A stretch of DNA of 64,000 nt from an uncultured bacterium (GTDB lineage Bacteria > Krumholzibacteriota > Krumholzibacteriia > Krumholzibacteriales > Krumholzibacteriaceae), in assembly GCA_965371515.1 (NCBI GenBank), contig CBDUYR010000011.1, forward strand, positions 1 through 64,000, given 5' to 3'. Numbering within the stretch: position 1 is the first letter of the stretch; each line of letters begins with the position of its first letter. The notes under the pieces were generated by a model. That model did no database searches. It was not told the DNA's origin and saw nothing but the letters and a program-made list of their open reading frames with translations. Position numbers and translations under genes: made by a program. Positions 6,447 to 12,691 of the stretch are shown one piece after another.

Positions 6447-8147
6447 TTACTTTGAGATCTTTACTCTGTCCTGCAGGCAGCCCGCCATCGGGATGGAGAA
6501 GCTGAACGTCGACCCTTTCCCCTTCTCGCTTTCCACCCAGACCCTGCCCCTGTGCAGGGTAACATAGTGTTTTACGAGGCGAAGACCTATACCGAGGCCG
6601 TTTTTATCCCTCGATGTCCCCCCGTCGACTTGCGTGAAGTTATCGAATATTTCCTGCGTCTCCTCTGGATCCATGCCTGGACCTTCGTCCCTCACGGAAA
6701 CGATTATATCGCCTTCACCGCATTTCGAGGAGATGGTCACCGCCTTACCGGAAGAGGCGAACTTGACGGCGTTACTGAGGAGATTTACGCAGACCTGCTT
6801 GATTCTCTGCGGATCGAACATCGTAATCGGCACCGAGTCGTTGAGCTCGGTGATGATGGTAACATCGTTCTTGTGTGCGGATGGCTCGGCCATCTTCACA
6901 GACAGCCTGATCATTTCATTTATACTCGCCTCGGTGACGTTGAGCATCGTATCGGAGACCTCCACCTTCGACAGGTCGAGCAAGTTGTTTATCGCAGTGA
7001 GTAGCTTCTTCGACTGGGTGTCGATGATCTCGAGGAATTCACGCCTCGTATCAGCTTCGATCTCGAAGTCGGAATCTTCGATCAGCGTGTCGGAGTACGC
7101 CATGATTATCGACAGGGGCGTCCTCAGCTCGTGGCTGATTCGTCCGAGGAACTCGCTCTTCAGACGATCGAGTTCCATCAGCTTCCTGTTTACCTCTGTC
7201 AGCTCCCTGTTCTGGACTGTGATCCTCTCCTCGAGCATCTTTCTCTCGGTCACGTCGTGCCCCACGACCAGCACGTACGGATGTCCTTTGATCTTGACGA
7301 GCGTCTCCGATACGTCCATGTAGACGACCTCGCCGTTTTTTCTCAGATACGGGATCTCGGAGAGCGTGATCGGCTCACCCTTCAGGACCCTGGCGAGATT
7401 GGAACGGGAGAGATCCCTTCTGTCGGGGGTGGTAAGGAGCCAGTAGCTCTTCCCGATGATATCCTCCGGCGAATAACCGAATTCCCTGTAAACAACCTCG
7501 TTGCACTCGATGACGTCGCCGGAATAATCGATCAGCATTATAACATCCCTGGCGTGGCTCATCAGGGTACGGTACTTCTCTCCGAGCTCTCTGTGGCTGT
7601 CGATCAGCTGCGAGTTCTCGATTGCGATGGAGGTCAGCTGGCTGAACTTGTTGACGAGTTCCAGGTCGAACTCGCTGAAATGGTTCTTCTCGCTGCTTCC
7701 GAGGTTCAGAGTGCCGATCAGCGAGTTCTTCGCGATGAGCGGCACAACGATGTCGGAACAGAGATTGTCCTCCTTCATAATCTCGGAGAACCTGTCGTCT
7801 TCGGGTATGTCGCGCCTGAGGATCGGCTTCCTGTTTATCGCCACCCAGCCGACAACGTTCGATTCCTCCAGCGGGACGTATCGTCCCTCATGAGAGGTGT
7901 CTCCGTTACGCCGGTGGATATGCCTTATGTAGAGGCAGTTGTCGTCTTTCTCGTAGATGGCGAGGCAGCCCATGTCGTAGTCGATAATACGGACCAGCTC
8001 ACTCGATATTTTCGACAGGATGTGGTCCAGGTCGAGGCGGGAGTTTATCACCTCCGCCATCTCCATGACGGCGGAGAGCTCCTTGACCACCTCGTCCTTG
8101 TTCTTGGCAGGCGAGTAAATTGTGTCGAAAAAACGTTCGCGTTCCAT
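6447..8147 (-). CDS. Cytoplasmic GAF-PAS sensor histidine kinase
   Basis: GAF (VPLIAKNSLIGTL), PAS, H-box SHELRTPL, N-box NLLSNAVKF, and G boxes DEGPG and GLGIGL. Confidence 0.93.
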   Translation of the reverse strand: MERERFFDTIYSPAKNKDEVVKELSAVMEMAEVINSRLDLDHILSKISSELVRIIDYDMGCLAIYEKDDNCLYIRHIHRRNGDTSHEGRYVPLEESNVVGWVAINRKPILRRDIPEDDRFSEIMKEDNLCSDIVVPLIAKNSLIGTLNLGSSEKNHFSEFDLELVNKFSQLTSIAIENSQLIDSHRELGEKYRTLMSHARDVIMLIDYSGDVIECNEVVYREFGYSPEDIIGKSYWLLTTPDRRDLSRSNLARVLKGEPITLSEIPYLRKNGEVVYMDVSETLVKIKGHPYVLVVGHDVTERKMLEERITVQNRELTEVNRKLMELDRLKSEFLGRISHELRTPLSIIMAYSDTLIEDSDFEIEADTRREFLEIIDTQSKKLLTAINNLLDLSKVEVSDTMLNVTEASINEMIRLSVKMAEPSAHKNDVTIITELNDSVPITMFDPQRIKQVCVNLLSNAVKFASSGKAVTISSKCGEGDIIVSVRDEGPGMDPEETQEIFDNFTQVDGGTSRDKNGLGIGLRLVKHYVTLHRGRVWVESEKGKGSTFSFSIPMAGCLQDRVKISK

Positions 8148-8256
8148 CGATTATCCGCTTTACGAAATATCCCTGTTCAGACCCTGACCAGGTCATTTCA
8201 AGCAGGAAATATTCCATTTTTCGGATAAACGTTACAATGAATCGGAATCAGCTCTG

Positions 8257-9891
8257 TCAGCCCCTGAAAGAGAATCGGCTCTTGAAGTGCCTGAGGCTCA
8301 GATCCCTGCCATACTCGACATTTATGGCCGGTATCCTGTCCCGGTTGTCGGCGAGGACCCTCATCGCCTCTACCACCGATGAAAGGTCCTGATCTTCGTA
8401 GGCCAGTCTCGGAACGGCGGCCCTGACGTAGTTGACCCTCGGCTCGGGCGGGATCTCTTTCTCACCGTCGAAGCTTCCGAAGGCGTACAGACCGAGCTCG
8501 CAGACACGGTGCCCCGCGATCAGCAGCAGCGCGGTAAACGAGATGCCCTTCAAATCATCGTCTCCGGCCGTACCGTCGAAGAACCTGTCAAGATCGATAT
8601 AGACTGCGTGGCCGCCTACCGGCCTGATGATCGGGATCCCCGCCTCGTAGAGTTGAGTGCCGAAGCGAACGACCTGCCCTATCCTCGCGTCGAGGTATTC
8701 GTCGCGGACGATGGTCCGAAGTCCCTCGGCGATCGCCTTGAGATCCCGGCCAGTAAGCCCGCCATAGGTCGGATGCCCCTCGGCCATGATCTGGTGGTTG
8801 GTGATTCCCTCCTTGAAGTGAGGGAACTTCTTCGAGAAATCTCCGTCCTTGCGGATCACCAGCGCCCCGCCCATGTTGACGAGTCCGTCTTTCTTGAGGC
8901 TGATGTGGAATCCGTCTGCGTACCGGAACATCTCGTGGACGATCTGACGGATCGAACTGTCCCAGAACTCGTCCTCTCGTTTTTTTATGAAATACGCATT
9001 CTCGGCGAACCTGCACGCGTCGAAGAAGAAGGGCACGCCGTGCTTGCGCGCCACATTGCGGATTTCCCTGATGTTACCTATCGAAACTGGCTGTCCGCCT
9101 CCCGTGTTGTTCGTAATGGTCAGGTAGACGAGGGGCACTCGATCCTTCTCGTGCTCGAGCAGGTTGTCGAGTTCCTCGATATCCATGTTGCCGCGGAAAG
9201 GGTATATCTCGTCGTTCTCGAGGTGCTCGCGGCAGGGCAGGTTCAGCGGGATCATCCCCTTGTCCTCGATATTGCCCTGCGTCGTGTCGAAATGGGAGTT
9301 GCTCGGAATGATCCAGAGGGGCAGATCCTTCGCATGCCCGTTCGAGTTCAGTTTCGATTCGATACGACTCTTCAGTTCCGGCCTCAGTCCTTCCGATAGA
9401 GGAGCGCTGCTGCCGCCCCCGACAGCGGCCAGCTGCCTGGCCAGGATCGAGAAGAAGGCGTTCTCGGCCGCCCGGCCCTGGTGGAAGAGAAAGAGGCTCT
9501 CCGACGAACCGCCCGAGGCAATGTCTTTCTCGCACCAGCCGGCGCCGAATGTCTCTGCGAACTGCGACCTGAGCTCAAAGTACCCCTCGTTCGACCCGTA
9601 CGCCTCGTCGCCGAGCATCATCGCAGCCCACTGGTTCATCGTCATCGTGGTCGTCCCCGAATCGGAGAGAAGATCGCATCCTGGTATTTTATCCGCCCTG
9701 AAAAGAAAAGCGTTGAGCCCGGCCTCGTTTATCACGATGTCGCGCCTCTGCTCGAAATCGTCCATGGAACATTCGCGGAACCTTACCACGGCGTTCCGGT
9801 ACGGCCTCGGCCTGTACCACTGACCAGGCACTTCCGGGGTATCCATGTTTTCCCTGAATTTCTTGATAAAGAAGGCTGTGGAATCGGACAT
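8257..9891 (-). CDS. tnaA: Tryptophanase (PLP beta-eliminating lyase) with insertions
   Basis: DLLSDSGT, GDEAYG, HQGRAAE, FDTTQG, DACRFAENAYFIK, PLP-lysine motif SLKKD, EGHPTYGG and LRHF. FDTT and RHF are tryptophanase-type rather than tyrosine phenol-lyase-type. Confidence 0.85.
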   Translation of the reverse strand: MSDSTAFFIKKFRENMDTPEVPGQWYRPRPYRNAVVRFRECSMDDFEQRRDIVINEAGLNAFLFRADKIPGCDLLSDSGTTTMTMNQWAAMMLGDEAYGSNEGYFELRSQFAETFGAGWCEKDIASGGSSESLFLFHQGRAAENAFFSILARQLAAVGGGSSAPLSEGLRPELKSRIESKLNSNGHAKDLPLWIIPSNSHFDTTQGNIEDKGMIPLNLPCREHLENDEIYPFRGNMDIEELDNLLEHEKDRVPLVYLTITNNTGGGQPVSIGNIREIRNVARKHGVPFFFDACRFAENAYFIKKREDEFWDSSIRQIVHEMFRYADGFHISLKKDGLVNMGGALVIRKDGDFSKKFPHFKEGITNHQIMAEGHPTYGGLTGRDLKAIAEGLRTIVRDEYLDARIGQVVRFGTQLYEAGIPIIRPVGGHAVYIDLDRFFDGTAGDDDLKGISFTALLLIAGHRVCELGLYAFGSFDGEKEIPPEPRVNYVRAAVPRLAYEDQDLSSVVEAMRVLADNRDRIPAINVEYGRDLSLRHFKSRFSFRG

Positions 9892-10916
9892 CAGACATTC
9901 TCCCTCGTCGGAATGTTCATCACTTCCCTGACTTCCCTCATCGTCTCTTTCGCAATCGCGCGGGCGCTGTCCGCGCCAGCCCCGAGTATATCCCTTACAC
10001 GTTTCGGGGCATCCTCGAGCTCTGCGCGCCTTTCGCGTATCGGCTCCAGAGCGGCGTTCATCTTCTCAGCCAGCTGCATCTTGCAGTCGACACAGCCCCT
10101 CTCGCCCTTCTCGCATTCAGAGCGGATGACGGCAAGCTCGGCCCTGTTGTATATGCCGTGAAATGCGTAGACGACGCAGCCGTCGGGATGGCCCGGGTCG
10201 TCCTTGCGTATCTTGACCGGATCGGTGAACATCGTCCGGATCTTCTTCGTAGTTTCTTCAGCACTGAGGTTCGTCGCGATATAGTTCCCCGAGCTCTTGC
10301 TCATCTTTATATCGACGCCGTCGAGGCCGGGCACCTTGGGCACCTCGGTGAGGAGCGCCTTCGTGATCGGGAAAACATCCCTGCCGTATAGCGAGTTGAA
10401 CCTCTGCCCGAGATCCCGCGTCATGTTGATGTGCGCCTCCTGATCCTTGCCGACGGGGACGAAATCACCCTTGTAGGCAAGGATGTCGGCCGCCTGCAGC
10501 GTAGGATAGCCGAGGAGCCCCAGGCTCGGGTTCTCGATCTTGTAACCCTGAACCATGTCCTTGTAGGTGGGGTTGCGCTCAAGCCAGCCGAGCGGGGTGA
10601 TCATCGAGAAAAGAAGGTGAAGCTCGGCCACCTCGGAGACATGCGACTGGACGAATATCGAACACTTGTCGGGATCGAGTCCTGCGGAGATCCAGTCTAT
10701 GGCCATCTCGTGTACGTTGGTACTGAGATCACCTACGTTCTCGAATCCGACGGCTCCTCCGCCGCCGGGAGTAGTAAGGGCGTGCCAGTCGACGATGAAG
10801 TAGAAGCAATCGTACTCTTCCTGGAGCCTGACCCAGTTATCGAGCGCTCCAAGCAGGTTGCCCAGATGGATGCTTCCCGTCGGCCTCATGCCGCTGGTGA
10901 CCCTTTTCCGTTCCAT
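9891..10916 (-). CDS. trpS: Tryptophan--tRNA ligase (Fe-S motif type)
   Basis: SGMRPTGSIHLGN (HIGH), YPTLQAADIL, VPVGKDQ, KMSKS; C-terminal C-x20-C-x6-C-x2-C. Confidence 0.97.
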   Translation of the reverse strand: MERKRVTSGMRPTGSIHLGNLLGALDNWVRLQEEYDCFYFIVDWHALTTPGGGGAVGFENVGDLSTNVHEMAIDWISAGLDPDKCSIFVQSHVSEVAELHLLFSMITPLGWLERNPTYKDMVQGYKIENPSLGLLGYPTLQAADILAYKGDFVPVGKDQEAHINMTRDLGQRFNSLYGRDVFPITKALLTEVPKVPGLDGVDIKMSKSSGNYIATNLSAEETTKKIRTMFTDPVKIRKDDPGHPDGCVVYAFHGIYNRAELAVIRSECEKGERGCVDCKMQLAEKMNAALEPIRERRAELEDAPKRVRDILGAGADSARAIAKETMREVREVMNIPTRENV

Positions 10917-10935
10917 CGATAATCTCCTTCTGGCG

Positions 10936-10961
10936 AAACCGGTTCTGCAAACCGGTTCTGC
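10936..10961. repeat. 13-bp perfect tandem duplication (AAACCGGTTCTGC x2) in the trpS leader
   Basis: Read directly. Each copy contains the palindrome AACCGGTT; the repeat lies just upstream of the trpS SD (GAAGGAG). Confidence 0.85.
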
Positions 10962-10998
10962 ATTATCGCAATCTTCGTGAATATTTGAAATAAAAAAG

Positions 10999-11072
10999 TA
11001 GGGGTGGCAGGACTTGAACCCGCAACCCCCGGTTTTGGAGACCGGTGCTCTAGCCAGTTGAGCTACACCCCT
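10999..11072 (-). tRNA. tRNA-Trp (anticodon CCA), 3'-CCA not encoded, discriminator A73
   Basis: AGGGGTGTAGCTCAACTGGCTAGAGCACCGGTCTCCAAAACCGGGGGTTGCGGGTTCAAGTCCTGCCACCCCTA folds into a full cloverleaf: acceptor AGGGGTG/CACCCCT, anticodon stem CCGGT/ACCGG, T-loop TTCAAGT. Confidence 0.96.
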
Positions 11073-11096
11073 TTAAACGATTCTATCGTAGGGAAA

Positions 11097-11124
11097 ATAA
11101 TATAGATTCGGGCGGGAAAGTCAA
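11097..11124 (-). promoter_or_regulatory. Putative sigma70 promoter for tRNA-Trp-trpS-tnaA
   Basis: TTGACT-N16-TATTAT on the minus strand, about 25 nt upstream of the tRNA. Confidence 0.65.
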
Positions 11125-11183
11125 GTGATTTGGGCAGGTTACCGGGACAGCCGCCCGTATTCTCTGTCTGCTCCCAAACGTAA

Positions 11184-11212
11184 AGGGAGGGAGCCGACCA
11201 GGCCCCCTCCCT
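11184..11212 (-). terminator. Putative intrinsic terminator after pepD
   Basis: 12-bp stem AGGGAGGGGGCC/GGCTCCCTCCCT with a 5-nt loop and a short U tract. Confidence 0.6.
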
Positions 11213-11236
11213 CTGATTCATCTATCCGGATATCCC

Positions 11237-12691
11237 TCAGCCGGCCAGCTTCGTCAGCAGGGCCGAGAGAAGGTTCCAGAACTGGCCGACGGTGGGCACG
11301 TTGACCCTCTCGTCGGGTGAATGCGGGTGCTCGATGTCCGGGCCGAACGAGACCATGTCCATCCCGGGAAACTTCTCGCCGATGATGCCGCACTCGAGGC
11401 CGGCATGGATGGCGATCGTCTTCGGCTCCTCGCCGAACACTTCCTTGTGAACGCCCTTGAATACCTTGAGAAGGTCCGAGTCGACATTGGGCATCCATCC
11501 CGGGTAAGGCTCGTTCTCTATGATCGCGGCGCCGGCGAGTCGCGCGTCTGCCGAGATCCTGTCGCGCAGGGCCTGAAGCGCTGTCTTTATCGAACTTCTC
11601 GTCGAGGTGCCGATCTTCGCCTCACTATCGGTCATGGCGATCGTGGCGAGGTTGTTCGAGGTCTCTACGAGGCCTTCGATGTCATAATTCATCGCCTCGA
11701 CGCCGTGAGGCAGTGCGATGAGCAGATCGAGAAGCGTCGACTGGCTCTTCTCATCGAGGACCTTTCCGCCGCCGTTCTCCGACGGGGTGAGCGATCCGGC
11801 GAGGCCCTTTTCCTTGCCGCCGAGCTCAATCGCGATCTTCTCGATCCAGTCAGAAACGAGCTCCTCGACATCTTTTACCGCCGTCTCGAGGATCATCAGC
11901 TCTGCGAACGCCTCGCGGGGGATCGCGTTGCGCTTGTTGCCGCCCCTGATCTCGATCAGGTGCGCGGGCTGGCTGCCCGTGATCGTCGCGATGAGACGCG
12001 TGATGATCTTGATCGCATTGCCGCGCTGATCGTTAATATCCAGACCGGAGTGGCCTCCGCGAAGGCCGAACACCTTGAGTGTAAACGGCTTCGTGCCGGC
12101 GGGAGCGTCGTTGCGCGTGAGGGGCAGCGTCAGGTTCGAGTCGCCGCCGCCTGCACAGCCGATCGTGACCTCGCCGAGCTCCTCGCTGTCGAGGTTGAGC
12201 ATGATCTCGCCCTTGAGAAAACCGGGCTGGATCTGGGCCGCACCTGTCAGACCGACTTCCTCGTCAACTGTGGCGAGGATCTCGAGCGGCCCGTGGACCA
12301 GGTCCTCGGCCTCGGCCGTTGCCATACCGGCCGCAAGGCCGATGCCGTTATCAGCGCCGAGGGTCGTGCCCTTCGCCGTGAGCCAGTCGCCGTCCATCTC
12401 GGTCTGGATCGCGTCCTTCATAAAATCGAAATCGAGGTCGGAGTTCTTCTCGCCGACCATGTCCATATGGCCCTGGAGCACGACCACAGGGGCGTTCTCC
12501 TTGCCGGCCGTCGCGGGGACGCGGACTACGACGTTGCCCGCCTTGTCCTGCTCCGCCTCGAGCCCTTTCTCGCCGGCCCACGCCAGCACGTACTCGCCCA
12601 TCCCGGCCTCATTGCCCGAGGTGTGCGGTATCGAAAGGAACTTCTCGAAATGCTTCCAAAGGTTCTTCGGTTCCATGTCGCCTACTGACAT
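11237..12691 (-). CDS. pepD: Aminoacyl-histidine dipeptidase (M20C)
   Basis: LQGHMDMV, TTLGADNGIG, DEEVGLTGA, NLDSEE, GGHSG, IHAGLECG and HSPDE motifs. Confidence 0.95.
   Translation of the reverse strand: MSVGDMEPKNLWKHFEKFLSIPHTSGNEAGMGEYVLAWAGEKGLEAEQDKAGNVVVRVPATAGKENAPVVVLQGHMDMVGEKNSDLDFDFMKDAIQTEMDGDWLTAKGTTLGADNGIGLAAGMATAEAEDLVHGPLEILATVDEEVGLTGAAQIQPGFLKGEIMLNLDSEELGEVTIGCAGGGDSNLTLPLTRNDAPAGTKPFTLKVFGLRGGHSGLDINDQRGNAIKIITRLIATITGSQPAHLIEIRGGNKRNAIPREAFAELMILETAVKDVEELVSDWIEKIAIELGGKEKGLAGSLTPSENGGGKVLDEKSQSTLLDLLIALPHGVEAMNYDIEGLVETSNNLATIAMTDSEAKIGTSTRSSIKTALQALRDRISADARLAGAAIIENEPYPGWMPNVDSDLLKVFKGVHKEVFGEEPKTIAIHAGLECGIIGEKFPGMDMVSFGPDIEHPHSPDERVNVPTVGQFWNLLSALLTKLAG

Follow-up and report, generated by a model that had tools for sequence, protein, structure and literature searches.

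Why should an enzyme that breaks tryptophan down be encoded together with the tRNA and the synthetase that consume tryptophan in translation? This question is raised by a locus in an uncultured member of the Krumholzibacteriaceae (assembly GCA_965371515.1, contig CBDUYR010000011.1), of which a 64,000-nt stretch, positions 1 to 64,000 of the forward strand, was analysed and is called the window here. The locus consists of tRNA-Trp, the tryptophanyl-tRNA synthetase (TrpRS) gene trpS and a gene for a tryptophanase-family lyase; coordinates are positions in the window and this three-part unit, referred to below as the trio, lies entirely on the minus strand. An earlier note on this DNA had suggested that the lyase makes tryptophan or an analogue of it for a dedicated synthetase/tRNA pair, or alternatively that the unit balances tryptophan pools. 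The reading favoured here, to which we give a probability of about 0.5, is that of a constitutive, trpS-coupled tryptophanase that would balance the tryptophan pool by destroying a surplus, beside a housekeeping tRNA-Trp/TrpRS pair with a co-evolved contact between discriminator A73 and Asn164.

A housekeeping pair in a broad auxotroph

The host genome (G000) is 99.6% complete and contains one tRNA-Trp among 37 tRNAs and one TrpRS, beside a TyrRS. Close homologues bear the label Candidatus Krumholzibacteriota, and for some of them Krumholzibacteriales is given. A search for a second trpS or tRNA-Trp and for trpAB, as proposed in the earlier note, returned none of these in G000, and a single TrpRS was likewise present in each of 34/34 genomes searched from the same order of Krumholzibacteriota (hereafter the order), in one of them split over two contigs. 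Because both genes are the sole copies of the genome and must decode all UGG codons, this tRNA-Trp/TrpRS is the housekeeping pair. Escherichia coli queries for trpA-E, his, aroA, aroF, pheA, tyrA, leuA, ilvD, argB and argC also gave no match in G000, which marks the host as a broad auxotroph. Across the order trpA was found in 0/52 genomes and trpB without trpA in 12/52, compared with trpA in 7/7 genomes of the same class outside the order.

A probably rewritten contact between tRNA-Trp and TrpRS

In E. coli, Glu155 of TrpRS bonds to discriminator base G73 of tRNA-Trp, a bond that is lost with A73, and this glutamate is called strictly conserved in bacteria in the excerpted text of Peng et al. 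2025 (PMC12135181); the same G73 rule is given in the excerpt of Giege and Eriani (PMC9976931). The order departs from this rule on both sides of the contact. Its tRNA-Trp carries A73 in 49/49 genomes read, together with A1-U72 and without an encoded CCA end; the count leaves out 3 of the 52 in which no tRNA was matched. By comparison, G73 is present in 24/24 outgroup genomes, read from among the 156 that the phylum search covered. When aligned to the E. coli enzyme, the TrpRS of the locus has Asn164 at the position of Glu155, Ala161 at Gln152 and Thr7 at Phe7. Asparagine occupies the Glu155 position in 49/49 order genomes and in 120/120 database TrpRS homologues, and glutamate does so in 5/5 outgroup TrpRS. 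The Gln152 change was considered as a further marker of the switch and rejected, as outgroups with G73 also lack Gln152. Threonine stands at the position of Phe7, a pocket residue according to the PMC12135181 excerpt, in 75/75 order loci that cover it, and leucine stands there in outgroups.

These data make a co-adapted A73/Asn164 identity switch very probably real. The Asn164 amide could act as the hydrogen-bond donor required by A73, and charging of the A73 tRNA would proceed through this residue. The 49 genomes represent one evolutionary event and not 49 independent ones. The synthetase itself is of bacterial type, scoring 280 bits against a cut-off of 176.75 for TIGR00233 and finding its best PDB matches among bacterial enzymes. 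Together with its tRNA it shares with the E. coli pair the HIGH/KMSKS motifs, A1-U72 and the anticodon-side Thr225, Asp226, Lys274 and Arg158/Asp159 positions, and departs from it where G73 is replaced by A73 and Glu155 by Asn. Bacterial tRNA-Trp with A73 has been reported, in the excerpt of Mukai et al. 2017 (PMC5370408), only with an archaeal-type TrpRS-A plus ORF1; the Microgenomates operon described there likewise joins a bacterial tRNA-Trp(A73) to a TrpRS gene, but its archaeal-type TrpRS and ORF1 are additional to a canonical pair, whereas the pair of the order is bacterial in type, the only one present, devoid of ORF1 and accompanied by a lyase. The A73/Asn164 switch was absent from the earlier note, and open-licence PMC and bioRxiv texts yielded no paper describing a tRNA-trpS-lyase arrangement and none in which A73 is paired with a TrpRS of bacterial type; all three parts taken singly are of known kinds.

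The tRNA gene has also moved. In 24/24 outgroup genomes tRNA-Trp adjoins a nusG-like gene, while contig C92 of G000, which carries tuf-rpmG-secE-nusG (genes named by eye), has an rpmG-secE spacer without a tRNA; the ancestral rpmG-secE site is thus vacated in G000. The remark in the earlier note that tRNA-Trp often sits in the rpmG-secE region is therefore true of the outgroups and not of the order.

Organization and expression signals of the locus

The features of the locus are as follows.

11124-11097, minus strand: candidate sigma70-type promoter, TTGACT-16-TATTAT, from a motif scan; recurs in order loci
11072-10998, minus strand: tRNA-Trp(CCA) with A1-U72, discriminator A73 at 10999 and no encoded CCA end, from tRNA search and Rfam
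10988..10997, minus strand: U-rich tract directly 3' of tRNA-Trp, present in nearly all order loci
10962..10989, minus strand: second promoter-like site, with an extended -10, in the tRNA-trpS spacer, from the motif scan
10916-9891, minus strand: trpS, 341 aa, with the Asn164 codon at 10427-10425 (TIGR00233)
9900..9905, minus strand: ribosome-binding site of the lyase gene inside the 3' tail of trpS, from aligned related loci
9891-8257, minus strand: tryptophanase-family pyridoxal phosphate (PLP) lyase, 544 aa (NF009709)
8202..8216, minus strand: conserved GG-N10-GC motif before the downstream GAF-PAS histidine kinase gene, found by eye

Promoter, tRNA-Trp(CCA), trpS and overlapping lyase gene thus lie where the earlier note had placed them. 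The motif scan returned 6 promoter-like sites against 2.6 +/- 1.7 in shuffles, which is weak evidence alone, and a TTGAC/TTGACA -35 with an ATTAT-type -10 recurs 5' of tRNA-Trp in 27 aligned order loci. The site at 10989-10962 is confined to the host's own genus among the aligned order loci. It lies in the 82-nt spacer between tRNA and trpS, which holds no open reading frame, and the preceding U-rich tract is a possible partial stop or processing site. That no tnaC-like leader or T-box precedes the genes, as the earlier note had observed, agrees with an Rfam search over 8000-11400, in which the tRNA alone was matched and neither a T-box nor any other RNA was found, and with folding of the leader, which gave the tRNA plus a weak spacer hairpin and nothing more.

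The stop codon of trpS and the start of the lyase gene overlap as TGATG. An overlap is kept in 30/30 related loci (-1 in 24, -8 in 5 and -17 in 1), accompanied in all 30 by a purine-rich ribosome site in the trpS tail. This overlap argues for translational coupling of trpS and the lyase gene, and a single transcript across both is likely, with the tRNA possibly included. The GG-N10-GC motif, which we take to be sigma54-like, persists even where the lyase gene has been lost and is likely the kinase's own sigma54-type promoter; it therefore likely marks the 3' border of the tRNA-trpS-lyase unit.

Other observations concern the upstream flank and the spacer. A hairpin that the scan did not call is visible at 11184-11212, after a pepD-like dipeptidase gene; it may set that gene apart from the tRNA promoter. 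Several order members (L032, L033, L035, L036) have an extra, divergent gene of ~543 aa inserted between pepD and the tRNA. Within the tRNA-trpS spacer, at 10937-10963, a 13-nt sequence that encloses a palindrome is directly repeated; only G000 has it in two copies.

A divergent lyase of the tryptophanase family

Family models and structure place the lyase in the tryptophanase/tyrosine phenol-lyase family (PF01212) of fold type I PLP enzymes, and it falls within the tryptophanase subfamily NF009709 (463.8 against a cut-off of 285), below the TnaA equivalogs TIGR02617 (289.9 against 825.8) and NF053783 (342.9 against 750); the cut-offs of the tyrosine phenol-lyase (TPL) equivalogs were not reached either. 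Its residues include the PLP lysine K334, Tyr98, Asp202, Arg294, Arg490, His535 and Phe536, and it keeps those aligned to F39, S54, Y74, F136, D137, N198, D227, R230, S267, K270, R419, H463 and F464 of E. coli TnaA. We take Asp137 and His463-Phe464 to be the tryptophanase type and Thr124/Arg381/Phe448 to be the TPL set; at the tryptophan-specific positions the lyase has Asp202, His535 and Phe536, with Leu466 in place of the TPL arginine. The structural model (predicted local distance difference test 91) has the fold of tryptophanases, with the long-form Butyricicoccus sp. enzyme 8SL7 as the best match in both sequence and structure (template modelling score 0.81, several motifs in common, 34% identity over the structural alignment).

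Compared with E. coli tnaCAB (NC_000913), the lyase has the same PLP fold and catalytic residues as TnaA, but is only 31% identical to it, has 544 aa with insertions and is coupled to trpS; it has no TnaC-like leader, and G000 contains no TnaB match. A natural TrpRS-lyase fusion was sought in 11 long homologues and none was found, which is weak evidence; the single partial chimera, P0189, is probably a frameshift.

A separate trpR-trpB unit, probably under TrpR control

Seven order genomes (L316-L322, corresponding to G009, G019, G028, G001, G031, G026 and G021) carry a unit in which trpB1 follows trpR and trpA is missing. A palindromic operator of 20 bp covers its promoter in 7/7, and TrpR was identified by Pfam in 3/7 and by similarity in the rest. 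This unit looks like a Trp-repressed indole salvage system and, as far as the excerpted source shows, recalls the trpR-trpB part of Chlamydia trpRBA, from which it differs in lacking trpA; it also lies elsewhere than the trio. All seven genomes retain the lyase. Scored with a matrix built on these operators, the trio did not exceed 6.4 in any of 28 loci, compared with 29.5-35.7 for the training sites and 18.4 for the host's own trpR, and TrpR control of the trio was rejected on this ground. The existence of a dedicated trpR-trpB salvage unit and the lack of a TrpR operator at the trio make the trio look constitutive.

The host's own trpR (G000:C1:76916-77400, L328) is an orphan gene, as the genome has no trp genes; its operator is a perfect palindrome in tandem. 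No convincing other target was found for it in G000, and on contig C62 a weak match to the operator lies ahead of an iron-sulphur protein gene and not of a transporter gene.

Conservation in the order and linkage outside it

Conservation of the trio across relatives, a check suggested in the earlier note, holds in that the lyase gene directly follows trpS in 45/49 order genomes read; of the other four, two end at contig edges and two (G015 and G018) have cleanly lost the lyase, G015 with the tail of trpS and its ribosome-binding site retained. These losses show that the lyase is dispensable. In-order conservation was rejected as proof of function, since it equals baseline synteny: when 400 kb sampled from G027 was compared with G000, 147/162 neighbour pairs and 72/73 tight co-directional pairs proved to be preserved, and the whole block flanking the trio is syntenic. 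Between the same two genomes, the conservation of the lyase itself exceeds that of 77% of sampled orthologues. Lyase and trpS are unlinked in the four outside-order genomes from which both were fetched.

In a FastTree phylogeny the lyase belongs to a clade of 68 rows (support 100), apart from 18 rows of ordinary tryptophanases, with members in WOR-3, Latescibacterota, Candidate Phyla Radiation (CPR) bacteria, DPANN and scattered others. The clade is common in CPR and DPANN records (L093-L133). In several of these, including L099, L101, L103, L109, L118 and L133, trpA is present too, which is unexpected in such reduced genomes. A trpA-like gene was found in 13/51 outside clade hosts against 7/13 hosts of ordinary tryptophanases, a comparison of incomplete genomes; a supposed decay of trpA in G045 was not upheld, as one frame spans residues 3-219. 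In phages, plasmids and viral contigs the clade gave either no matches or matches below 60% identity (31-39% among the matches listed).

Of clade loci outside the order for which 400 nt or more of upstream sequence was available, 3/83 have trpS immediately before the lyase gene, compared with 0/33 ordinary tryptophanases plus 0/30 with short flanks; a metagenome scan added no case in 50 outside clade loci. The cases are G041, G043 and a trpS remnant in G042. Their linked TrpRS proteins are only 29-38% alike, so at least two of the trpS-lyase joins are independent, while the G042 remnant may share its origin with the unit of the order. In G041, labelled Melioribacteraceae (L085/L149; 4737-7539 in L085), a second trpS, a tRNA-Trp(G73) and the clade lyase lie together on a low-GC patch (0.28-0.36 versus 0.37-0.42); two other members of the family, 43% and 34% identical, are encoded in G041, as is TrpB2, and trpA, which 26/30 relatives have, is missing. 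In G043, labelled Bradymonadales, trpS overlaps the clade lyase (L132, 4802-7434). At L121 (1397-3279) only a C-terminal remnant of trpS is left, behind an insertion-sequence-like fragment. Relatives of G041 and of G043 had a close clade copy in 0/30 each. Since other synthetases adjoin the clade only three times in all (128/179 neighbours scanned, ~0.16 per synthetase), chance would hardly produce two or three cases with trpS (P 0.012 and 0.0006, respectively).

Balancing, making or discarding tryptophan

TrpRS has a high affinity for tryptophan and known tryptophanases a lower one. In a host that would live on peptides, lacking most amino-acid pathways, TrpRS would thus take tryptophan first and the lyase would split the surplus into indole, pyruvate and ammonia, perhaps running in reverse at high indole. 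This is the pool balancing that the earlier note had offered as its alternative, and it fits best with the lack of a TrpR operator at the trio and with a salvage unit kept elsewhere. Several points weigh against it. A constitutive tryptophan-destroying enzyme coupled to TrpRS is counter-intuitive in an auxotroph; trpB is present in only 12/52 order genomes, and elsewhere the lyase is the sole visible route from indole to tryptophan; the clade has changes on the pocket side relative to E. coli (V394 to C, I396 to L, L400 to A and F304 to H); and G041, which lacks trpA, has the clade lyase as its third family member, next to a tRNA-Trp and a second TrpRS.

The serious, though less probable, rival is that the lyase works chiefly in the direction of synthesis, building tryptophan from scavenged indole and serine, cysteine or pyruvate/ammonia, and feeds the adjoining TrpRS. 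Tryptophanase is reportedly reversible, as Watanabe and Snell are said, by the title of their 1972 paper, to have described. The absence of trpA from the order, the presence of trpB in only 12/52 of its genomes, the abundance of the clade in WOR-3, CPR and DPANN records, the lower share of clade hosts with a trpA-like gene, the recurrent linkage to dissimilar TrpRS and the presence of TrpB2 in G015, which has lost the lyase, all point the same way. On the other side, the trio has no TrpR operator, seven genomes carry trpR-trpB plus the lyase, G018 (94% complete) has neither lyase nor trpB, G041 has TrpB2 as well, 80/83 outside loci have no adjacent trpS, the trpA comparison rests on incomplete genomes, and a broad auxotroph would obtain tryptophan with its peptides. 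The tryptophan-making enzyme of the earlier note therefore keeps the support of trpA loss and repeated trpS linkage, and loses that of regulation and of G018. Its dedicated pair fares worse: an extra TrpRS/tRNA pair charging an analogue made by the lyase might be read into the changed pocket residue and discriminator, or into the second TrpRS copy of G041, but is scarcely credible where both genes are sole copies that decode all UGG codons, and for G000 it is already largely refuted. Destruction of substituted tryptophan or analogues before the altered-pocket TrpRS can load them is improbable: Thr at the Phe7 position in every order locus covering it, the clade-specific changes beside the lyase pocket and the repeated trpS linkage would suit it, yet outgroups also depart from Phe7, with Leu, and the lyase was lost twice with the TrpRS pocket unchanged. 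Nor is it likely that the lyase is an ordinary catabolic tryptophanase that arrived next to trpS in a single event and was retained there by static gene order, with no functional link; the baseline synteny and the syntenic flanking block would accommodate such a passenger, and 3/83 against 0/33 is a small difference, but the linkage exceeds the synthetase background and G041 rebuilt the three-part set in another order. Pool balancing thus remains the favoured account of the trio.

Implications

G73 read by a conserved glutamate is a textbook mark of bacterial tRNA-Trp, and a whole order in which both partners of the sole pair have been swapped represents a natural experiment in rewriting identity rules. 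The A73/Asn164 combination could yield a TrpRS/tRNA pair of bacterial type with orthogonality in E. coli. A broader and rather unlikely proposal is that the lyase clade is anabolic, converting indole to tryptophan without a synthase, that it has spread among auxotrophic bacteria and archaea and settled repeatedly beside trpS, and that in the order it supplies a bacterial TrpRS/tRNA-Trp(A73) pair that is orthogonal by nature and has an altered amino-acid pocket. If the clade does run toward synthesis, many tryptophan auxotrophs presumed to produce indole would be indole consumers instead.

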